From the IMG/VR virus record IMGVR_UViG_3300006048_000003: a DNA stretch of 64,000 nucleotides; one strand, written 5' to 3'. Shown here in pieces: positions 5,662 through 50,197 of this stretch (positions are counted from its first letter, which is position 1; each line of letters starts with the position of its first letter). This DNA is from a virus. A program made the position numbers and the translations under genes. A model generated the notes under the pieces. It saw only the letters and a program-made list of their open reading frames with translations, made no database searches and was not told where the DNA came from.

Positions 5662-6169
5662 CACGCAGATTCTGGTACGCACGCATGGTCGCTTCCTGAA
5701 CCCGATCTACCAGTTCCCGCCAGGCGTCGTGATCGTTCTCGATATCGATCCCCGTGTCTCGTGCCAGACCATCCAAATATCCATTGTCATGCCCTTCATA
5801 CGGCTCGAAATCCCCTACTGATGTTTGATTGGGATACCACACACCCTGCCGCATCCCACCCGCGATCCCGGCAGCTTCGTTTTCTGAGTTGGCAGATTGG
5901 TCGTCATGAACAATCCCACCACCAACGCGAACGTGATTCCCCAAATGAGTCATCACGGAGCCATTGAGGAATCCACCATGATCCCTCAACTGCATATTGG
6001 CGAGAGCACCATCAATCCGTTTCCATGCCGCCTCGTCGGAGCGTCCGTTCTCGTCTAGCCAATCCGCGTAGACCCAATGACGGGTGGAATCATGTGGATT
6101 CTCGTCAATAGATCTCTGGAAATCACCATCGGAATGGGAGTAATTCGTGGGCTGCACGTTTGTAGTCAC
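5657..6169 (-). CDS. TIGR02996-like domain protein flanked by repeat units
   Basis: IDENPHDSTRHWVYADWLDENGRSDEA; SD GAGGAG before GTG 6169. Confidence 0.7.
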   Translation of the reverse strand: MTTNVQPTNYSHSDGDFQRSIDENPHDSTRHWVYADWLDENGRSDEAAWKRIDGALANMQLRDHGGFLNGSVMTHLGNHVRVGGGIVHDDQSANSENEAAGIAGGMRQGVWYPNQTSVGDFEPYEGHDNGYLDGLARDTGIDIENDHDAWRELVDRVQEATMRAYQNLRG

Positions 6170-6232: not shown

Positions 6233-9200
6233 CTATACGATTCCCCATTTGGCAAATACCCGATGTGTCTCCGGGAACTTCTGCTTCAGGGTTTCCCTTC
6301 CGTTGGGGGTCGCATGGGCAAGTCGGAAGGCTTCCCCGAATCCTTCGGTTGGGTCAATGGCAGAATATTCGTTCAAGTTCCCACTCTTGATTTCCTTGTG
6401 CCAGGCTTTCTTCCACTCATCCGATGTCGAGAGTTGGTGGTATCCCCCTTCCTTCCCCGCAGGATGGGACCAATCAAGTGCATGGGCGACTTCATGGGCC
6501 AGGACGCCCATCGGGTCATTTCCCCCCGCGTGGAGGTGAACGTGCCCCACATCCGGGTCGTGGAAGCCGTTGGGGGCTGTGAACTGACTGTTCGGGTCAT
6601 CCGCAGCCTGTCCCGTGGCCTTCGTCCAGTGATTCCCCACATGCTCCTGTGACTGATGCGAAACGATGTGACTCAGCCTGCCTTGTCGGAGTCGTTCGAT
6701 CACGTTCGGTGAAAAGCTCTTGAGCATGTCGAACGTCTGTCCTGCCAGGTGAGCAGCCTGATCCGGATCTTGGACGTGGTGAACCAGAGCATTCGCGATG
6801 GAAGACGCGAAGGTATCGTGATTCGTCCAATCGACGGGATGGTGAACGCTGCCAGTGTCTTGTTGCTGCTGGGGCTGTGCGTCATCGTATCGGGACGCCT
6901 GGGTCGGAGGTTGCTGTGTTCCCAGATTCTTGACGTATGCTTGCCGGAACGCTTCCTCCATCGCGTGACGGGATGGCCATGCAAATGTCTGCGTCGAATC
7001 ATCCCACCTGCCGTGATGGGGCTTCACCTTGCCGTCTGGGTCGGCCTCCCCGGTCCATGCCCACGTTTCACCGGGGATGTGATATCCAAAGTTCTCAACT
7101 CCTTTTGGGAATCTCCCGTCGTTCGTCCCATAAGCAAAACCCCCCGGTGAGGCGACAACCCACGGTCGATCCGCGAATTCCTGCTGTCGGTGTCGTGGGA
7201 TTTTCGGTGGCTTCCAGGTGGAATACCATTCCCCGAGATTCCTTCGGAATTGAGCTTCTTCTGGCTGGCCGTTCTCTTCCAGGAAGTCCGCGTATGCCCC
7301 ATGCGTGGTGTATTCGTGGGGATTCTCGTCAATCTTCCGCTCGAAGTCCTCGGCGGTAGGTTCCATGTACATAGCCGGTTTCGGATAACCCGAGAATCCC
7401 GGCTTGCGTGGTGGGGAGTGCTGGAACATCACAGAGCCAGGAATGTATTGCCCCTTCCGGTAGGGTTTGTCACGATACGTCATTGCGACCGGAGCTTGAC
7501 GACGCTCGTACCTCGTGAACCCAATCGGCTGTTGGGGTTTCCTCCGATCCTGTCCGAACGACGGAATGAAAGTGTTGTTTCCTCCAGGGAAACCCATGTA
7601 TCGCTGATGACCCAACACGGGACCATTCACCGGGGGAGTCCCTGGTTGCTTCCCTGACGAAAAGAATTGCATTGGAGGGCTGATTCCCCCTCCTGGCGGA
7701 ACAGCGTGTCCTGGCATCGGTCCGGGAATCCCCGCAGGGGAGGGAACCTGAGCCAGTTGCATTGGTGGGGCTGTGGGTTGCACGCCCATCATCATGCTCG
7801 GATCGAGGGGACTTCCAGGAGGAACCGGTCCCTGTCCTGGCATCCCGTCCGGAGGCATCACGGGGGGAAGTTGTCCCATCTGCGGCAATTCCGGCCCCTG
7901 TGGACCCATTTTGGTCACGATGGTGGGTCCACCGGGGAACGCCTGAATGACGACCTCATCCCCCTCTTCTGGTCGGGAGAAATCACCCGCTTCCATCAGT
8001 TCATCGAGCTTGATGTACCCGCCCATGCTCAAGATCAACTTGCCCGACTGGACTTTCTCTTTCTTTTCCAAGTCGGGGAGGATGCTCTTGAACCTGACCG
8101 GGAACTTTGCCCACGGGAAGTTGTACTTCTTCAGGGGAGCCAGAAGATCGTTAGTCAAAACTTCGTCAAGACGATTGGTGTCATATACTAACAACTCATC
8201 CTTCGTTGCTCTCGAAAGCTCGGCACGTCCGGTGCCTCCAAGCCCATCCCCCTTATCCGCTCCGGAGGACATGCTCTGACCAACGAACAGCCTCTCAATG
8301 TGTCGGTCGAAGAAGTCCCTCACCAAGTCTTGAAGTGCTTTCAGTCCAGCACTGTTCATCTGGATCTGTTCGACTGCATTCCAGTTCTGGTCAGGACGAC
8401 GCGGGCAAACAATTGCAGCTTTCCCAATGATTTTGTTGGCGTTGATTTCTGCCTGGAGCTTCCCGGCTGCGTCCCCTGCGGGGTAATTGAAAACGAGCAG
8501 GTCCATCTGCCCGATGGCCTGCATGTAAGTGATCATCCAGGTCAGGGCGTCGGTACGAAGGACATAGAGCCAGTACACCATTCCCCGCAAACCCAATCCC
8601 TGAATACTACCCGCTAAGATTCCCTCGAAGAAGTCGGCTGGTTCCCGAACGTGCTGATGGATCACAAACCGTTCTCGCCACTGTTCCCGTTGAAGGACAA
8701 GGGCACATCCACCCCGGTCGGTGTAACGTAGATCCCCGTCCCCCCATGTTTCAGCCTGAATGCCTTTGTCCTTGTCGAAGGATTCCTTCCAGTCCCCACC
8801 CCACTTGGCTCCGTGGTTGGCGTACCAGGAGGTAGTCATCGAATCCATCAAGATCGCGGGGATGCCATCGAAGGTGTACTGGATGGAATCGCCGTGAACG
8901 GGGCTCCACGTCTGGTCTTTGCATCGCTGATTCTTGCCGTAGACCCAGAAGTTGTTGCAGTCAGGATCACGCTGGAAGAATCCCTGCACGGCGGATCGAC
9001 CGAACCACACTCCTTGTAGAAGTGACCACTTCAACATCGAGAACTGTGGAGTAGATTCCACGATCTTGGTCATGGAATCCCGAACGTACATCTGCTTGCT
9101 GTCGCGGTCATCATCGACCTCTATCCTCCAGTCGCGGTTCATTGTCGGTAAAAGTCTCTCCCACAGAAGCCCCCACAGGAACCCATCCCGTCGCATGGCC

Positions 9201-9433
9201 CTGGCATTTACGTAACTGTCACGCATACTCTCATCAAATTTGCTGCTGAACATTCTCTGAGCTGCGTTATATACCGCCTGCACAGCATGAGATGGAGGAA
9301 CTAACAAACGACCATTACCTATCATTGGCGAGCCGTCTGGAAGCGTGAAGTCCTCCAGCTTGAAGTTCTTCCGAGGCGGGACAGCCCTGAAAACCTCTAA
9401 GTCTTTTGCCAGGTCGTCAATGACGGTGGGCAT
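6233..9433 (-). CDS. Portal protein (DUF935/Mu gp29-like) with C-terminal TIGR02996-like and HEXXH metallopeptidase-like domains
   Basis: GLGLRGMVYWLY...IERLFVGQSMSS resembles the DUF935 core; then a Pro/Gly linker, YADFLEENG and VLAHEVAHALD...EGFGEAF. Confidence 0.7.
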   Translation of the reverse strand: MPTVIDDLAKDLEVFRAVPPRKNFKLEDFTLPDGSPMIGNGRLLVPPSHAVQAVYNAAQRMFSSKFDESMRDSYVNARAMRRDGFLWGLLWERLLPTMNRDWRIEVDDDRDSKQMYVRDSMTKIVESTPQFSMLKWSLLQGVWFGRSAVQGFFQRDPDCNNFWVYGKNQRCKDQTWSPVHGDSIQYTFDGIPAILMDSMTTSWYANHGAKWGGDWKESFDKDKGIQAETWGDGDLRYTDRGGCALVLQREQWRERFVIHQHVREPADFFEGILAGSIQGLGLRGMVYWLYVLRTDALTWMITYMQAIGQMDLLVFNYPAGDAAGKLQAEINANKIIGKAAIVCPRRPDQNWNAVEQIQMNSAGLKALQDLVRDFFDRHIERLFVGQSMSSGADKGDGLGGTGRAELSRATKDELLVYDTNRLDEVLTNDLLAPLKKYNFPWAKFPVRFKSILPDLEKKEKVQSGKLILSMGGYIKLDELMEAGDFSRPEEGDEVVIQAFPGGPTIVTKMGPQGPELPQMGQLPPVMPPDGMPGQGPVPPGSPLDPSMMMGVQPTAPPMQLAQVPSPAGIPGPMPGHAVPPGGGISPPMQFFSSGKQPGTPPVNGPVLGHQRYMGFPGGNNTFIPSFGQDRRKPQQPIGFTRYERRQAPVAMTYRDKPYRKGQYIPGSVMFQHSPPRKPGFSGYPKPAMYMEPTAEDFERKIDENPHEYTTHGAYADFLEENGQPEEAQFRRNLGEWYSTWKPPKIPRHRQQEFADRPWVVASPGGFAYGTNDGRFPKGVENFGYHIPGETWAWTGEADPDGKVKPHHGRWDDSTQTFAWPSRHAMEEAFRQAYVKNLGTQQPPTQASRYDDAQPQQQQDTGSVHHPVDWTNHDTFASSIANALVHHVQDPDQAAHLAGQTFDMLKSFSPNVIERLRQGRLSHIVSHQSQEHVGNHWTKATGQAADDPNSQFTAPNGFHDPDVGHVHLHAGGNDPMGVLAHEVAHALDWSHPAGKEGGYHQLSTSDEWKKAWHKEIKSGNLNEYSAIDPTEGFGEAFRLAHATPNGRETLKQKFPETHRVFAKWGIV

Positions 9434-10314: not shown

Positions 10315-10789
10315 GTTGCAACTACTAACCCGTTGCACTGGGATTGTTACGTCTCTTCTGTGTGAGGCACCAACCCAGCGGCTTGTGGTTGCAACTACAA
10401 ACCGGTTGCACTCGGTATGTCACGCCGACGCCGAGCAGTTGGCGGCACTCGAACGCAAGTTGCAACTACAAACCGGTTGCACTGGGATTGTTACCTAGCT
10501 TCGACTTCCGTGCCGCATTCATTGCTTCGCCCCTCGATTGCAACTACTAACCCGTTGCACTGGGATTGTTACGATGCTTGTGCTGCTTGTGGTTGTCCAC
10601 TCGAAGATGTTGCAACTACTAACCCGTTGCACTGGGATTGTTACCGAAATAAAGGTTCGGGAACTCTGCCATAGGCGCCGTTGCAACTACTAACCCGTTG
10701 CACTGGGATTGTTACAGCCGTCGCCAGGTCCGGCGGCACGAGGAGGCCGGTGTGTTGCAACTACTAACCCGTTGCACTGGGATTGTTAC
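10315..10789 (-). CRISPR. CRISPR array: 7 repeats (36 nt), 6 spacers (35-42 nt)
   Basis: Sense consensus GTAACAATCCCAGTGCAACGGGTTAGTAGTTGCAAC. Repeats start (+ coordinates) at 10315, 10388, 10459, 10537, 10609, 10680 and 10754. The most variant copies are leader-distal; the leader/promoter lies between the array and the cas gene. Confidence 0.97.
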
Positions 10790-10793
10790 TGCC

Positions 10794-10822
10794 ACTCTAC
10801 AACACGCCCGCTTCCCAAGCAA
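10794..10822 (-). promoter_or_regulatory. Sigma70-like promoter of the array
   Basis: TTGCTT-17-TAGAGT; the -10 element ends 4 nt before the first repeat. Confidence 0.65.
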
Positions 10823-10911: not shown

Positions 10912-12816
10912 CTAGACGCGAGCGGGTACTTTCGCCCCAGAAGCCCCCAAAGCCCTGTTTAACAAGTTCGTGGCGGCATTCACTGCCCGATCCCTCTTTT
11001 CACCACCACAGGACTCGCAGCGAATCCAGCGGCCCGACTTCGGGTGGTCACACGATTCCCCACACTGACAACACGTCGTCACGATGTTCCTGGCGGACTC
11101 AGTAACTTCGTTCATGTATCTTGTTATCTCGTCCCGGAGTTGGGCACAGGAAGACAGTGCCCGATATCGCTTGTTGACGATATCGTTCCCGTTCTCGACT
11201 TCAGGATTCTCAGCCAACTTGTTCCAGTCAATTTCCGCGATCACCACGTCCTTGTACTGATAGCTCAGGTCAATCGCCACTTTTCGGAAGAAATCCTTCC
11301 GCCAGTTCTTGATCTTGTCCCGCTTGTGTGCCCTCCAGTCGCACAGGTGTTTGCTCTGCAAACGCCCCCCGGTGTACTGATTCCTTCCCGTGGTTGGGTT
11401 GAGTTGGATTCTCCCCCACATTCTTTGGAAGATCTCTTCGTCTCCGGGAATCCGATGATCCTTCCACCACCAAATGAGCCACATGAACCTGTCGGCACTT
11501 CGCCACTGAATCAGAGTCTGGGCACGCTCGGTCCACTCTTCGGGAAGGGGATTCGGGTAGTTCACGAACCAGTCGACCAGTTCAGCCCTTTCAGCTTCAA
11601 ACAAGGTATCCCGAATGGACTGGAGGGTGTCAAGATAGGACCACCCCTCCACCAATTCTTTGGGAATACGGACGGTTCCGGTCACACCATCATCACCAAC
11701 CCACTCGGTAACGCGGATTTCCCCATCAATCAGACGCCAACCCAACGCCACCGCGACAGTCCCTTCCTGTGCCCGATCCTGTCCGGCCGGGTGATACGTC
11801 CACGCATCCCGTGCGATGTCGAACTGAACATCCCACCGGTAATGAGTTCCAATCTTCCTGCGGGACAGGTGAACCCACTTCACTTCACCGTCTTCGGGGA
11901 GAGGACGCGACATGACAGCCGGAATCGACGCCATCACCGGCTTTCCCTTTTCGTCCGACGATACACGAAAGTGGATGACGACGTACTTCGGATGGGGAGC
12001 CGTCAGCGGTGGTTGATACGTCCTTTCGATCCAGCAATTCGTGTTGGGGGTGAAGACATCACAGGTCCGAAGAGATGACCCCCCCACGTGAGCGAACGTT
12101 GGCTTCTTGCTGCGTGGATGGATCTTGGGATTGCCTTTGGAGTCCAAAACTGGCTCCTTCGGGGATGTCTTGTCGGGCTTCCGTTGGAACTGAACCGAGA
12201 TAACTTCCTCCCCCCGCCACGACTTGAACTTCGGGGGTGGGCCGGTTCTCTTTACACGTCCCACCACTTGCAGGGAAGTAGCCCAGTACAACCCACCTTC
12301 CACCGCCGCGTTGCGGGCATCTGCCTTTCGTTGTTCAAACGACTTATCGTTGTCCTTCAGGTCGGCTTTCACCTTCGGGTCGGCAAACGCGGCGTCCCGC
12401 TGATCAGAATAGAACTCCCATGCCTGGGACACCACACGCTTCTGAGCGTTGATTTGCTCCACTAGTTCGGGGTCTGACATCAACTGCCGGTTCTGACTGT
12501 TCGACTGGCTGAGTTCATCCCGAAGCTCCTGGAGGCGTTCCTGCTGCTCCTGGGCTGCGTTGTGGAGGGTCGTCAGAGCCGGAAAGTGTCTGACCAGGAT
12601 TGGGTCGATGGCTTCCCTGCGGGCACGCTCGATTTCTACCAACTTGTTCTGGAACTGGTGAGCGAGCTTCATCTGGGTAACTGCCAGGTCGTGTCCATCG
12701 AACCTCTGACGGAGGGCTTTCGTGCCGTCAGGATTGATTTCACGCGGACCGGAAAGGAACCCCCGGCAACCGTAGTTGTACTTGCGAGTCGGTTTGCTCT
12801 TGTTACCGAATGCCAT
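10912..12816 (-). CDS. cas12m: Cas12m-like (type V-M/V-U1) effector, 634 aa, predicted nuclease-dead
   Basis: N-terminal YNYG...QMKLAHQFQNKLVEIERARR, GLYWAT and PKFKSWRGE...SVQFQ resemble Cas12m. RuvC-I VAVALGWR, RuvC-II VVIAEIDW, RuvC-III DRAVNAATNL, CxxC/CxxC zinc ribbon. Adjacent to the array; SD GGAG before ATG 12816. Confidence 0.85.
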   Translation of the reverse strand: MAFGNKSKPTRKYNYGCRGFLSGPREINPDGTKALRQRFDGHDLAVTQMKLAHQFQNKLVEIERARREAIDPILVRHFPALTTLHNAAQEQQERLQELRDELSQSNSQNRQLMSDPELVEQINAQKRVVSQAWEFYSDQRDAAFADPKVKADLKDNDKSFEQRKADARNAAVEGGLYWATSLQVVGRVKRTGPPPKFKSWRGEEVISVQFQRKPDKTSPKEPVLDSKGNPKIHPRSKKPTFAHVGGSSLRTCDVFTPNTNCWIERTYQPPLTAPHPKYVVIHFRVSSDEKGKPVMASIPAVMSRPLPEDGEVKWVHLSRRKIGTHYRWDVQFDIARDAWTYHPAGQDRAQEGTVAVALGWRLIDGEIRVTEWVGDDGVTGTVRIPKELVEGWSYLDTLQSIRDTLFEAERAELVDWFVNYPNPLPEEWTERAQTLIQWRSADRFMWLIWWWKDHRIPGDEEIFQRMWGRIQLNPTTGRNQYTGGRLQSKHLCDWRAHKRDKIKNWRKDFFRKVAIDLSYQYKDVVIAEIDWNKLAENPEVENGNDIVNKRYRALSSCAQLRDEITRYMNEVTESARNIVTTCCQCGESCDHPKSGRWIRCESCGGEKRDRAVNAATNLLNRALGASGAKVPARV

Positions 12817-12844
12817 GCTTGGGAACTCCAGAAGGTGGGAAATC

Positions 12845-12880
12845 TTCGCAGCTACCAACCCGCTGCGATGGGAACAGGCA
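12845..12880 (-). repeat. Repeat-like unit in the cas12m 5' UTR
   Basis: Sense TGCCTGTTCCCAT-CGCAGC-GGGTTGGTA-GCTGCG-AA; a perfect alternative 6-bp stem between the -10 element and the SD. Confidence 0.8.
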
Positions 12881-12909
12881 ACCCTAGCATGAGATTCGTT
12901 AAAAGGCAA
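12881..12909 (-). promoter_or_regulatory. Sigma70-like promoter of cas12m
   Basis: TTGCCT-17-TAGGGT with extended TG. Confidence 0.65.
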
Positions 12910-12910
12910 A

Positions 12911-13519
12911 TTATCGTCCCGGTGGTCTGATTCTCCTGTTCGTGAATGTCCTCCTGCCGTCCATTCCCCCTTCGTTCTGATATCCCATCGAATCACCGTC
13001 TTCCTCGAACGGAACTCCGGTAATACTCCCGTCGTCGTGGACAGTGATTACCATCACTCTGCCACCCTGGGGGCTTTGTAGAGTCATTCCCACGCGAACC
13101 GGGAAACCGACATGGAACCGGACGGTGGTGATCTCTGTCTGTCCTTGCTGGACTTCAGGAACGACCGGATTGAACATCCGGACCACTTCCATGCACGCCC
13201 AGTTCATGTCGAACAGAATTGGTTGGAGAAGATTCCCCAACTGGAACCGGAAGTCATTCTCAGGGTCATTACTCCGAGGACCAGCAAACATATCTCTCGT
13301 GGCGAATCCCACAACAAACGCTTGCAAGTTATGAGCAGTCTGTACCATTCCCGCTTCGAGGAGGGCATCATAGAGAGGAATGGCCGCTGTGGGGTCAGGA
13401 GGTGTTAATTCCTCTCCGGACTCTGGCAGATAGCCAACGGACCCCACCAGACGCCACGCCAGATTACCGATGTTGTCGGACCTGCGGACGGGTCCAACTT
13501 GTTGTTCTTGTTCTGCCAT
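12911..13519 (-). CDS. Hypothetical protein
   Basis: 202-aa ORF in the minus-strand run. Confidence 0.6.
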   Translation of the reverse strand: MAEQEQQVGPVRRSDNIGNLAWRLVGSVGYLPESGEELTPPDPTAAIPLYDALLEAGMVQTAHNLQAFVVGFATRDMFAGPRSNDPENDFRFQLGNLLQPILFDMNWACMEVVRMFNPVVPEVQQGQTEITTVRFHVGFPVRVGMTLQSPQGGRVMVITVHDDGSITGVPFEEDGDSMGYQNEGGMDGRRTFTNRRIRPPGR

Positions 13520-13555
13520 GTGAAATCACTTGTCCTTCGTTCGATTTAATGGAAA

Positions 13556-13882
13556 CTACTGTCCTCGCCGGGCACTCAGTTTCCCACCCATCGTTAGTGG
13601 GGAAGTTGGTCCTGTTGTCTTTGCTGGTGCTGTAGGGTCTTTATCTTCTTTCGTTTGGATGACGACTGCGAGTATCTGACTCTCGACTAGAATAATGCAC
13701 CTTTCCCCGTTAATGAAGATTGAGGTGTTCTCAACGTAGAGGACAACATCTCCAACTTTGACATTACGTCCAGTACCCACCTGCACAACAGTGCCACGCA
13801 ACGGCTTTCCATCGGAATCGTCGGATGGGAACTCAACACGCACCAACACCCGATCACCGAGAAGACGAATGGATTCTTTCAT
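13556..13882 (-). CDS. groES: GroES-like co-chaperonin
   Basis: IRLLGDRVLVR...GTVVQVGTG...VKVGDVVLY...ILVESQILAVV. Confidence 0.8.
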   Translation of the reverse strand: MKESIRLLGDRVLVRVEFPSDDSDGKPLRGTVVQVGTGRNVKVGDVVLYVENTSIFINGERCIILVESQILAVVIQTKEDKDPTAPAKTTGPTSPLTMGGKLSARRGQ

Positions 13883-14354: not shown

Positions 14355-14542
14355 TTCGTCTCCGGTTTGGGCTTCTCACGGATCACACGCCAGAATTCCT
14401 TCGCGTTATCCAGTGACATCTTGACGCAATCACAACACATCGGGACGTCGGTGAATGTGCCGTGGATGTAGATATGACTGTCCACAGCATTTTCAGCCAG
14501 TCCCCCACAGCGGTAGCAGTTCTGGATCGGATTAACTTTCAT
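14351..14542 (-). CDS. Small Zn-finger-like protein
   Basis: CYRCG...CCDC; ATGA overlap at 14542. Confidence 0.5.
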   Translation of the reverse strand: MKVNPIQNCYRCGGLAENAVDSHIYIHGTFTDVPMCCDCVKMSLDNAKEFWRVIREKPKPETK

Positions 14543-16551
14543 TTTCGTGCTCCTGTCGCAAGAACGGTGTCTATCAACGAAGGTGCCCGATTGAGTTCCT
14601 GCTCCGACGCTAACTTCTCGTCTATTTCCTTGAGTGGAATCACGGACATTCGGCAGTAGGTATCGTCCACTCCAAGAGAAATGAACAGATTGCTTCCGTG
14701 AACCACAGCCCCACCAGGCCAGCAAACGAACCGCTTCACCACGTTGTCATTGTCTTTGCTGTCTGGCCAAAGCAAAGGAGTTGGTGTCTGTCTCCAGACA
14801 TTGAACGGTGGTTCGGGATTGAATGCCACACAGCCAGCGGAATACACACTGCCTTGCAGACGCTTCCGGCACCCGTGTACAATTGACCACATCTCGTAAC
14901 GCTGTTCCTTCTCACTCCACACTTTGATCGGGGACGCTCCACCTCGAATGACCCCACCTGCCCAGGGCAACTTGTTCGGAGTACGCCACGTCTGGCGGTC
15001 GGACATCACGATCATTTCCGGCTTGTGTGCGTAAACCCAGTGAATTTTCCCGTTGTGCTCCCACGCGACCCAGTTCTTCTCATACTTGTTAGAATTTGGT
15101 GACTCGAATACGAAGGTGTCCTCGATGCTTTTAAGGTCATCTGCGAACCGGACGTATCCGACCTGCACCAGCTTCGGGGGATACCCGTCCGGCAAACTGA
15201 ATGAAGCGTGGAGTCTGCCTTCGTACAGAAACAGTCGGGGGTCTTCGAGTCGGGTGGCCTGAGCGTGTTTCGATGCCAGCGAGGATACAGCCGTCACAGA
15301 CCATTCCCCAAGCCAGTCTTCCTGGGTGTTCTGCAACACCCAAATTCCAGTACGGCTATGACCCCAACTGTCCCGCGTGGCGAGGATCAATTGCCCCCGA
15401 TACTCTGCCACCGAACAATTAAAGTGTCCGTCCGGAACGGGAAGTCGAGTTCTTTCTACGTCAGGTGTCACGAACTGTCGGTATTCACACGTCTCGCAGG
15501 ATCGCACAGGAACGTCGGCTTCCTTGATTTTGGCCCCCACCTTCGTGAAGCAGTGATCTCCGTAACGACCACACTTCGCCAGAGGTATCGTCCTTCCCCC
15601 TTCCAGGACACCGATTTCGTTGCTCCACTCCGACCGGTACATACAGGGAAGTGGGTCCGAATATTGGAGTATCACCTGATCCATCTCCGGGGTGATGTGA
15701 AGAGGATCTTGAATCTCCCGTCCCGTCAGGAGTGCCTGGACGTCCCCGTGGTGCCTGCTCTCCGTGACACCGAGGGGTAACGATGGTTCGCTGCTACTAA
15801 CCCGCTGCGATGGGTCTGGGGCAGTTCGTGTGACATTTCCATCGGAATTAACCCCCGATAGTGGGTTGTCGCTAACGTCGATACAGGATGGTGCCCATTC
15901 CGGTTTCCCGGTGCCTGCGTAGTCGAATGTTCGCTGCGTTACAATGGACGGGAGGACCGCACACCAGTTCAAAAGTCCCTTCTTCAGGACACGTTCCCAG
16001 AGTTGCTGATCCAGGTTCCGGTGTGCCGCCCGCATGTGCTCCAGAAGAACCGGGAGAGCACGTCTGCGGAGCATAATGGCGTGTGTGCCGAAAGGTTCGT
16101 TTAGTCTGCACAGACGCGAATCAGGCAATCCAATGCGTTCCGTCACCTTGTTCCAGCAATTAGGCTGCACTTCTGCGGAGCCGAGAAACACCAGATCCCA
16201 CTCCGGGAAGTCGGAATAGAGTTGGCGTTGGAGCAGTTCCAGTTCAGTGTGGTAGTTCTCAGGGAGGGAGACGTCGTCCTCGAAGATGATGTATTCGTGA
16301 TTGTCGCGATGAACCCACTCCTGACCCGACAACCAGATGTGCTGCCAGAGATTCCACGTCGAAAGGTTGAGAGAGACGTGACCAGACGGCAGGTGCTTTC
16401 CCGGCTCGTATTCGAGTGTGGTGGAAAGTCCCCAAGTACGTCCGTGGCTGGCCTTCCAGTACGTCGCGTCAATCCCCCGCTCTGCAAGGTGTTCCTTGCA
16501 GGCTTGGGTTCGTTCGGGAAGCTCTTCGCAGTGAATCACATAATACTTCAC
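14539..16551 (-). CDS. GT25-like glycosyltransferase fused to a GH130/GH43-like beta-propeller
   Basis: N-terminal YYVIHCEELPER...IIFEDDV; C-terminal FNCSV...LEDPRLF...EKNWV...IRGGASP...CWPGG; GTG start 1 nt after the previous stop. Confidence 0.7.
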   Translation of the reverse strand: MKYYVIHCEELPERTQACKEHLAERGIDATYWKASHGRTWGLSTTLEYEPGKHLPSGHVSLNLSTWNLWQHIWLSGQEWVHRDNHEYIIFEDDVSLPENYHTELELLQRQLYSDFPEWDLVFLGSAEVQPNCWNKVTERIGLPDSRLCRLNEPFGTHAIMLRRRALPVLLEHMRAAHRNLDQQLWERVLKKGLLNWCAVLPSIVTQRTFDYAGTGKPEWAPSCIDVSDNPLSGVNSDGNVTRTAPDPSQRVSSSEPSLPLGVTESRHHGDVQALLTGREIQDPLHITPEMDQVILQYSDPLPCMYRSEWSNEIGVLEGGRTIPLAKCGRYGDHCFTKVGAKIKEADVPVRSCETCEYRQFVTPDVERTRLPVPDGHFNCSVAEYRGQLILATRDSWGHSRTGIWVLQNTQEDWLGEWSVTAVSSLASKHAQATRLEDPRLFLYEGRLHASFSLPDGYPPKLVQVGYVRFADDLKSIEDTFVFESPNSNKYEKNWVAWEHNGKIHWVYAHKPEMIVMSDRQTWRTPNKLPWAGGVIRGGASPIKVWSEKEQRYEMWSIVHGCRKRLQGSVYSAGCVAFNPEPPFNVWRQTPTPLLWPDSKDNDNVVKRFVCWPGGAVVHGSNLFISLGVDDTYCRMSVIPLKEIDEKLASEQELNRAPSLIDTVLATGARK
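15787..15822 (-). repeat. Repeat-like unit embedded in frame in an inter-domain linker
   Basis: Sense GCCCCAGACCCAT-CGCAGC-GGGTTAGTA-GCAGCG-AA; canonical loop; closely resembles 12845-12880. Confidence 0.65.
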
Positions 16552-16552
16552 T

Positions 16553-17419
16553 TCACACCCTCGATGGTCCTGTTGCCGTTCCAATGACCCAATCAAGTGA
16601 ACTCGAATGTCCCGCAGGAACTGCCCGCCCCTCAATGTCTGAAGTGATTGGATCATTGTGTCGAATCGGAGCCGGTCCCGCATCCAGTGTGTCCACACCC
16701 TGACCGCCTGAATTCAATCGCACGTCAACCATCGGCGGCAGGCACTCAAATTCAATCCCTGGCCACACGTCGCAAGTATAGTGATCGAGTTTGCCCTGTA
16801 CGGGAACCATCGGGCGGAAACTATCCCAACCACGCACACGGAAGTACTCAGAATAGGGAAACGGACGAGACTCGAAGAACTCTCGCACGTTCGTGTGCTG
16901 AAGTGCATTCTCCCCAATCGGGAAACCGGAGTGCGTAGTCAGCTTCACCTTCTGAATTGGCTGTGCGGTATCCGGACAGGGGGAAAACAGCCCCTCATGA
17001 CCACAGTCCCGCTTATTTGGATGCCACACCAACTGATCCGCGTGCTTGAGGAAGTCTTCGGCTGAGCAGGTTACGTGCGATATGAAACCACGAGTGAATT
17101 CCCACTTGTTTGGCACCAATAAAACAAATGGACGCATACTCTCCCACAGCTTATCAGTCAACTCCCGCTCGCGGTCACGAAGACCAGGCAATCTCGCCTT
17201 CTCGTCACACACAGAACAGTGAATTACACAGCAACTCGCGTCATCGTGCGATGCTGCGTATTCAATCTTCGCCAACTCTACCTGCACACGAATAAACTCT
17301 GCTCGCTCCGACTGACCATGCTCCTCGTACCAGTCCGCCATCGCCAGACGCACCGAATCCTCATCCGGATTGGTGATGATGGATCGCAGGAGTAGATTAA
17401 AGTCGTTCATATTATTCAA
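16553..17419 (-). CDS. TIGR02996-like domain protein
   Basis: LLRSIITNPDEDSVRLAMADWYEEHGQSERAEFIRVQVELA. Confidence 0.8.
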   Translation of the reverse strand: MNNMNDFNLLLRSIITNPDEDSVRLAMADWYEEHGQSERAEFIRVQVELAKIEYAASHDDASCCVIHCSVCDEKARLPGLRDRERELTDKLWESMRPFVLLVPNKWEFTRGFISHVTCSAEDFLKHADQLVWHPNKRDCGHEGLFSPCPDTAQPIQKVKLTTHSGFPIGENALQHTNVREFFESRPFPYSEYFRVRGWDSFRPMVPVQGKLDHYTCDVWPGIEFECLPPMVDVRLNSGGQGVDTLDAGPAPIRHNDPITSDIEGRAVPAGHSSSLDWVIGTATGPSRV

Positions 17420-19968: not shown

Positions 19969-19997
19969 ACTCTAGCACGCAATCCGTGGAAAGGCAA
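19969..19997 (-). promoter_or_regulatory. Sigma70-like promoter
   Basis: TTGCCT-17-TAGAGT with extended TG. Confidence 0.6.
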
Positions 19998-50133: not shown

Positions 50134-50169
50134 GTTACGGCAACTAACCCGCCGCAATGGGGTACTAGT
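50134..50169 (-). repeat. Dispersed repeat-like unit directly after a promoter
   Basis: Sense ACTAGTACCCCAT-TGCGGC-GGGTTAGTT-GCCGTA-AC; 34 nt before ATG 50099. Confidence 0.75.
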
Positions 50170-50197
50170 ATCCTACCCTGTAATACACATAAGGCAA
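50170..50197 (-). promoter_or_regulatory. Sigma70-like promoter
   Basis: TTGCCT-16-TAGGAT. Confidence 0.5.

Follow-up and report, generated by a model that had tools for sequence, protein, structure and literature searches.

The cas12m gene on the minus strand of the soil-phage DNA analysed here (a stretch of 64,000 nucleotides (nt) from IMG/VR virus record IMGVR_UViG_3300006048_000003, referred to as the window) is preceded by a 93-nt leader, at 12817-12909, in which a variant of the CRISPR repeat lies between the promoter and the ribosome-binding site (RBS). This unit, the handle, is very probably present in the cas12m mRNA and selected as RNA, and its resemblance to the guide scaffold suggests that Cas12m is probably able to bind its own message and so to regulate its own synthesis. 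An earlier note on this DNA had proposed that the effector captures its own leader as a pseudo-CRISPR RNA (crRNA), giving negative feedback at the RNA level. The features of the gene and its leader are listed below in the direction of transcription, where L001 denotes the closest related locus and X5 and X6 are strain variants of the window.

12904 to 12909, minus strand: -35 element TTGCCT with ATAAT just before it, read from the sequence; a member of a recurrent promoter class, kept in L001 and invariant in the strain variants.
12881 to 12889, minus strand: extended -10 element TGcTAGGGT (TG at 12889-12888, TAGGGT at 12886-12881), with the counterpart TGcTAGTCT in L001.
12873 to 12875, minus strand: predicted transcription start site, about 12874 and at scaffold position about -30, placed 6-7 nt past the -10 element.
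12845 to 12880, minus strand: 36-nt repeat variant (psi-repeat), a crRNA scaffold mimic matched by a covariance model, with all nine pairs of both helices formed.
12870 to 12872 with 12859 to 12861, minus strand: second helix, CCC with GGG, which covaries between CG and GC across units and lies outside the stem-only model.
12862 to 12867, minus strand: 5′ arm of the stem, CGCAGC, changed at C12867>U (X5, X6) and C12862>U (X5) with pairing kept both times.
12847 to 12852, minus strand: 3′ arm of the stem, GCUGCG, where G12847>A in X5 compensates C12867>U.
12817 to 12844, minus strand: pseudo-spacer of 28 nt, which is the 5′ untranslated region (UTR); its Shine-Dalgarno (SD) motif GGAG at 12826-12829 corresponds to guide nt 16-19.
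10912 to 12816, minus strand: cas12m, 634 amino acids, with alanine at all three RuvC catalytic positions by comparison with a structural homologue; the start is taken from the conserved MAFG.

The anatomy given in the earlier note, TTGCCT-17-TAGGGT directly abutting a repeat variant with a perfect alternative stem, then 28 nt containing GGAG and ATG 12816, is exact on the minus strand: the stem forms between 12867-12862 and 12852-12847, and the distance to the start codon is correct to the base. The 17-nt spacer separating TTGCCT from TAGGGT contains the TG of the extended -10, the handle occupies -29 to -57 relative to the AUG, and the start codon falls at ‘guide’ position 29. ATG 12816 is fixed as the start by the N-terminal MAFG, which is common to all orthologues. 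A search of Rfam matched the leader to none of its known RNA families.

The helices of the array repeat pair UGCAAC with GUUGCA and CCC with GGG. In the leader, CGCAGC/GCUGCG replaces the first of these, a difference of two compensated pairs, while CCC/GGG and the loop are kept. A covariance model trained on 33 units, the leader unit among them, scores the leader at 36.3 bits (E 1e-7) in a search space of 64 kb, and the match to the repeat is not a chance one. The underlying alignment draws on the window and six other loci. Standard pairs fill 98% of its cells, seven of the nine pairs change on both sides, and none of 500 shuffles reaches the observed pairing values. Because these units had been picked partly by a hairpin scan, pairing was recounted on 28 window matches of a covariance model containing only the stem; it was 96.8%, and the second helix, which that model does not contain, switches from CG to GC six times. 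What is conserved among the units, two helices and the loop GGNUUnGUA, are the features of the Cas12m scaffold, described for the MmCas12m2 crRNA as a pseudoknot and a stem (PMC10442227). A switch-like alternative fold of the leader was considered and found unsupported, the predicted folding being limited to the handle hairpin and weak pairing of UUCCC with GGAG (z = 0.15).

Selection on the structure is visible within a single population. For this comparison, related-strain contigs originating in other rhizosphere and soil samples were aligned to 12650-13050. In X6, C12867>U turns a C-G pair into U.G; in X5 the same change is accompanied by G12847>A, giving U-A, and C12862>U produces a further U.G pair. 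One more change in X5 lies between the SD and the ATG, and both promoter elements (-35 and -10), the second helix, the loop and the SD are invariant. Of the 93 nt of the leader 4 are changed, compared with 16 of 167 nt in the adjacent coding sequence, and the wobble pairs of the variants are possible only on the transcribed strand. The leader element is under selection as an RNA structure. Another X6 contig has the same promoter followed by a different unit (...CCCAUCGCACCGGGUUACUAGGU...). The gene on the far side of the promoter is listed next.

12911 to 13519, minus strand: upstream gene of 202 amino acids with no family match, its stop TAA at 12913-12911; missing in X5.

In X5 the junction joins 12914 to 13561, with four other bases in place of 12915-13560. 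Since X5 keeps the sequence from ATAAT-TTGCCT downwards but lacks this gene, promoter and leader travel with cas12m. Pfam and PHROGs returned nothing useful for the genes neighbouring cas12m.

A generic sigma-70 scan missed the cas12m promoter, which belongs to a class that recurs in the window: TTGCCT-N(15-18)-TANNNT has four minus-strand occurrences where 0.58 would be expected. Three copies (12881-12909, 19969-19997 and 55383-55411) have TTGCCTTT...TGCTAG(G/A)GT in common, L001 carries TTGCCTTT...TGcTAGTCT at the equivalent site, and the fourth copy, at 50170-50197, abuts a repeat-like unit at 50134-50173. The CRISPR array of the phage is preceded by a promoter of the same type.

10794 to 10822, minus strand: array promoter TTGCTT-17-TAGAGT, read as ATAATTTGCTT-17-TAGAGT, 4 nt short of repeat 1 and sharing the motif ATAATTTGCYT with the class.
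10315 to 10789, minus strand: CRISPR array of seven 36-nt repeats and six spacers, downstream of cas12m and co-directional with it; each repeat carries the scaffold at its 3′ end.

The consensus of the class is (ATAAT)TTGCYTTT-N-TGCTAGRGT, and the copies at 10794-10822, 19969-19997, 50170-50197 and 55383-55411 are all on the minus strand. Two of these four copies abut repeat-like units, namely array repeat 1 and 50134-50173; a badly degraded unit follows the copy at 19969. The crRNA of MmCas12m2 is disordered at positions -36 to -30 and ordered from -30 (PMC10442227). As the predicted start of the cas12m transcript falls at scaffold position -30, the message looks like the product of a leader-repeat module with an open reading frame (ORF) in place of spacers.

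The effector itself is a Cas12m homologue. The best solved relative of the cas12m product is PDB 23vw_A (‘CRISPR-associated DNA-binding protein Cas12m’; E 1.3e-43), followed at a distance by Cas12m2 (8hhl/8hio; E 8e-5), and Pfam gave no match. The RuvC catalytic positions, D, E and D in 23vw, are all alanine here, as they are in the clade consensus of 27 relatives, which implies a phage Cas12m without RuvC activity. Phage-borne Cas12m has been reported only recently, for a protein with an intact RuvC triad (10.64898/2026.09.14.751636). Homology to Cas12m, a co-directional array and a two-helix scaffold place the present system in type V-M. Cas12m proteins bind a single crRNA of 50-60 nt and cut pre-crRNA upstream of the scaffold without RuvC (PMC10442227, PMC11013384), and Cas12m silences through binding DNA (PMC11013384). 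Spacer 2 of the array (10644-10678) has a same-strand match to its own phage genome at 60603-60637 (28 of 35 positions, flank GGTG) and looks as if aimed at a related phage, the resident copy having diverged. The same spacer resembles the start region of cas12m at 22 of 29 positions; we rejected this as coincidence, as there is no seed match and 60603-60637 is the better relative.

We compared 12 distinct loci, the window included, which were fetched through an identity look-up of homologues. Seven of them carry a repeat-like unit upstream of the ATG, at a distance of 27-50 nt: 28 nt in the window, 27 in L001, 31 in L006, 35 in L002, 44 in L008, 46 in L009 and 50 in L004. Each carrier has its own compensated stem, unlike the stem of its own array (for example CGCGAC/GUCGCG in L002 and GCAGU/ACUGC in L004 and L008), and both helices are kept across Cas12m proteins that are about 50% identical while the unpaired flanks diverge. 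Upstream arrays are present in L006 (8 units), L008 (6 units) and, in short form, L004; those of L006 and L008 have the unit before the ATG as their final repeat. L001, whose Cas12m is 68% identical, belongs to a syntenic phage with a Mu-type portal; its pseudo-spacer is not conserved with that of the window, the SD excepted. Unit carriers are scattered across the main clade of the protein tree, so the unit is either an old feature with losses or one gained repeatedly. The outgroups L010 and L011 have no unit, no direct repeat was found upstream in L017, and only two more relatives, both distant, came from scans of viral, metagenome and genome contigs.

Several observations concern these loci individually. 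The motif ACTTTCTT(T)CCCCTAACG precedes the unit in L002 (3916-3936) but follows the units in L004 (3973-3992), so units seem to move relative to other leader elements. The first spacer of the L001 array (5907-5941) reads antisense to the 3′ end of cas12m in that locus (5824-5858), agreeing at 31 of 35 positions and adjoining TTC; at the homologous window site, which adjoins TTT, 27 of 35 positions agree. This spacer could be self- or rival-targeting, or could form a long RNA hairpin around repeat 1, in whose loop the L001 cas12m stop codon TAG sits. Codons 4-6 of cas12m in the window (GGTAACAAG; GGT AAC AAG, 12800-12808) resemble the repeat start GTAACAA, 38 nt past the handle, and may be a relic of an array unit or a coincidence; 38 nt is a normal spacer length, and L001 shows GGGAACAAG at the same place.

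The leader unit has many counterparts in the window. Outside the array, the covariance model finds about 22 repeat-like units between 2697 and 54977, the cas12m leader included, of which 21 are on the minus strand; the lone plus-strand unit precedes a plus-strand gene. For about 13 units, counting the leader and the last array repeat, an ORF of 77-634 amino acids starts 13-34 nt downstream, and in these handle-led genes the SD falls mostly at ‘guide’ nt 16-22. The last array repeat, for instance, is followed 28 nt on by AAGGAG and the ATG of a 93-amino-acid ORF. The upstream ORF often stops inside the unit, with TAA at scaffold positions -32 to -30 or TAG in the loop. Unit 3′ ends are of two types, the ...GCAAC of the array and the ...GNRRA of the cas12m leader, and L001 has the same handle-led cassettes. 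With the leader being one of about 22 dispersed units, the handle is not private to cas12m, and autoregulation would follow from a general device in which cas12m is one of many handle-led genes. The unit at 15787-15826 nearly matches that of the cas12m leader (28 of 36 positions, the same CGCAGC arm, one A.A mismatch) and lies in frame within a 719-amino-acid ORF (14539..16698). Assemblies of a related strain confuse these two units, leaving a loose end at 12872. Elsewhere in the window, a 1066-amino-acid protein (6233-9433) combines a Mu-type portal domain (E 4.5e-28) with a C-terminal Pfam match of the ATLF metalloprotease type (E 1.5e-7).

These findings suggest how an effector might regulate its own message. 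Transcription of cas12m from a promoter of the CRISPR-array type would yield an mRNA that begins almost exactly at the first functional nucleotide of the scaffold mimic. Free, RuvC-dead Cas12m would bind the leader handle as it would a crRNA and hold the first ~20 nt of the pseudo-spacer like a guide, SD included, and the held pseudo-spacer would keep the 30S subunit off the RBS. Given mature crRNAs of 50-60 nt (PMC11013384), Cas12m would shield some 20-30 nt of guide, which here covers the SD. Synthesis of Cas12m would drop once free protein exceeds the handles on offer (crRNAs and other handle-bearing mRNAs) and climb when the protein is titrated. The same logic would apply to other phage genes with a start codon 13-34 nt past a handle, making Cas12m a translational repressor resembling RegA, its own message included.

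That Cas12m binds its own leader handle and occludes the RBS, with negative feedback tuned by the competing pool of handles, is the reading we prefer, at slightly less than even confidence. The earlier proposal of autoregulation is partly supported, by the placement of the hairpin between a real-looking, recurrent, conserved promoter and the RBS, by the selection for RNA structure and by a predicted start (~12874) at scaffold position -30; any effect of Cas12m binding on translation could be of either sign. In a wider version, the RuvC-dead phage Cas12m would be a post-transcriptional regulator for which the scaffold is an mRNA operator 13-34 nt before a dozen or more start codons, cas12m included, setting translation or processing across a regulon with array crRNAs competing. 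This is possible, if on balance rather doubtful.

Several observations weigh against RBS occlusion. Binding of Cas12m to the leader is suggested by its resemblance to the scaffold, and a structured, protein-bound 5′ end could stabilise the mRNA instead. Taken as a whole, the leader has an unremarkable folding stability (z = 0.15). In L002, L004, L008 and L009 the SD is weak or lies 26-40 nt past the handle, outside a guide of 17-20 nt. The unit in L006 and L008 is possibly just the terminal repeat of the upstream array, and a promoter-like motif in L004 follows the units there. No unit is present in L007, L012 and L013, which have strong canonical promoters instead, so the handle device is dispensable.

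The alternative that survives best, though we consider it somewhat unlikely, is that the handle is a processing or stabilising element: Cas12m, or the structure alone, would define and protect the 5′ end of the cas12m mRNA and separate it from transcripts reading through from the upstream gene or an upstream array, with a neutral or positive effect on expression. Having cut pre-crRNA upstream of the scaffold, Cas12m stays on the downstream product (PMC10442227, PMC11013384), and no terminator was found between the upstream gene and the leader. In L006 and L008 cas12m follows an array of 6-8 units with no obvious promoter of its own, and at many gene junctions the units, with the upstream stop inside them, are like sites of intercistronic processing. 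The distance from handle to ATG, which varies between 27 and 50 nt and is at its longer values in four loci, also fits processing better than it fits RBS occlusion. However, the promoter abuts the handle in the window and in L001, which makes processing needless there, and the regular position of the SD at guide nt 16-22 in most window units is not required by this explanation. Processing and feedback can coexist.

A sponge or loading platform, in which the handle and the dispersed units titrate Cas12m from crRNAs or buffer the apo-protein with no direct effect on translation, is decidedly less probable. The window has about 22 such units against seven array repeats, phage solitary repeats acting as Cas-binding decoys are known (Racr, PMC10651486), and binding or inhibition of the effector has been proposed for solitary repeats by cas12a (10.1101/2023.03.03.530964). 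Decoys, however, need neither a fixed short distance to a start codon nor sense orientation at gene junctions, and here the cognate effector is encoded by the phage itself.

It is very unlikely that handle and pseudo-spacer are released as a small guide, with which Cas12m would repress partly matching DNA in its own promoter or in a host or rival-phage gene. CreR RNAs act in this way for type I and V-A effectors (10.1101/2023.03.10.532045), Cas12m does silence by binding DNA (PMC11013384), and the L001 spacer matching its own cas12m 3′ end by TTC means that self-targeting at the DNA level may exist in the group. Nevertheless, a search with the first 12-17 nt of the pseudo-spacer over the 64-kb window, part of a contig of ~104 kb, gave no target above chance. 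Six of seven loci searched had no seed-matched partial target from -1000 to +300 of the ATG, and the lone 10/12 match has no T-rich flank and is at chance level. We consequently rejected a CreR-like DNA target, nothing above chance having been found in the window or around the seven loci. Targeting of the own locus was likewise judged unlikely, as the purine-rich GAA at the handle 3′ end differs from TTC/TTT, the one flank in the group resembling a protospacer adjacent motif (PAM). The pseudo-spacer has diverged between the window and L001 apart from the SD, and no terminator or second repeat separates the handle unit from the cas12m ORF, into which the RNA continues. The contrast drawn in the earlier note with known Cas autorepression, which works through guided binding to promoter DNA, is thus a fair one.

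Two further explanations are barely credible. The unit as a functionless relic, either the decaying remnant of the last repeat of a vanished upstream array or a copy of a leader-repeat module, would accord with the full upstream arrays of L006 and L008 and the short one of L004, with the loss of the unit in some relatives and with the repeat-like codons 4-6, but not with a compensatory change via a G.U intermediate within one population, with helices maintained at about 50% Cas12m identity while unpaired flanks diverge, or with a leader more conserved than the adjacent coding sequence. Equally implausible is a hairpin read by another factor (a host RNase or another phage protein) and resembling the repeat through common descent: several genes near units have no known function by Pfam and PHROGs, but what is conserved corresponds exactly to the Cas12m scaffold, and the unit accompanies cas12m in every locus that carries it.

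Operators at the RBS of the protein's own message are familiar from translational autorepressors such as T4 RegA, the MS2 coat protein, ribosomal proteins and ThrRS. The likeness is a functional analogy: a protein occupies a structure at the SD or slightly 5′ of it, in its own mRNA and in others, and competes with the 30S subunit, as proposed here for Cas12m; to our knowledge none of these is a CRISPR effector or uses an operator that mimics a guide scaffold.

Among CRISPR systems, the nearest precedent is the solitary repeats that adjoin cas12a in a third to half of V-A loci, have no conserved target and were suggested to mediate RNA-effector binding (Shmakov et al. 2023, 10.1101/2023.03.03.530964). 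They too are diverged standalone repeats directly upstream of a type V effector gene, conserved in a clade and with no conserved spacer target. They belong to bacterial V-A loci, however, their position relative to transcription start and RBS was not analysed, and their repeat identity is near the detection limit, whereas the unit described here belongs to a phage V-M system, sits between promoter and RBS, shows covariation in both helices and is one of about 22 genome-wide. CreR and tracr-L act through feedback on promoter DNA (10.1101/2023.03.10.532045; 10.1101/2024.10.29.618823). Shared with them are a degenerate repeat near the cas 5′ end, which in the leader unit keeps the effector-binding structure, and, as proposed here, an effector that senses its own abundance relative to crRNAs and feeds back negatively. 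CreR, in contrast, is a separate small RNA whose gene lies upstream of the cas promoter and whose pseudo-spacer pairs with PAM-flanked promoter DNA to repress transcription; the present unit follows the promoter and continues into the ORF, its pseudo-spacer is the RBS of the same message, and the searches returned no such target.

TnpB, a member of the same superfamily, processes its own mRNA into omega-RNA (PMC10278001). Binding of a structured part of the own mRNA, coupling ribonucleoprotein assembly to expression, would be common to both, but omega-RNA, which overlaps the tnpB 3′ end, itself becomes the functional guide, whereas here the element is in the 5′ UTR and guides come from a separate array. 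Racrs, which are phage RNA anti-CRISPR decoys (PMC10651486), are likewise solitary repeat units in phage genomes, transcribed and able to occupy a Cas protein. They mimic host repeats against host immunity; the units described here match the array and effector of the phage itself and sit at start sites.

Solitary repeats upstream of cas12a mean that the element is already known in kind. What is new is the position of the unit between promoter and RBS with the RBS in the place of the spacer, its compensatory evolution within a population, the RuvC-dead phage effector and the genome-wide set of units; the mechanism would be new if confirmed. Feedback would then arise from an effector reading its own scaffold in the 5′ UTR of its own and other phage messages, as opposed to the known guided binding of promoter DNA, and a CRISPR effector would have a new natural role as an RNA-binding factor in translation or processing. 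The same mechanism would be a candidate for the unexplained solitary repeats by cas12a, and synthetic biology would gain a compact, orthogonal protein-operator pair with which to control translation. For the phage, it would be an example of a nuclease-dead CRISPR system repurposed for the regulation of its own genes.
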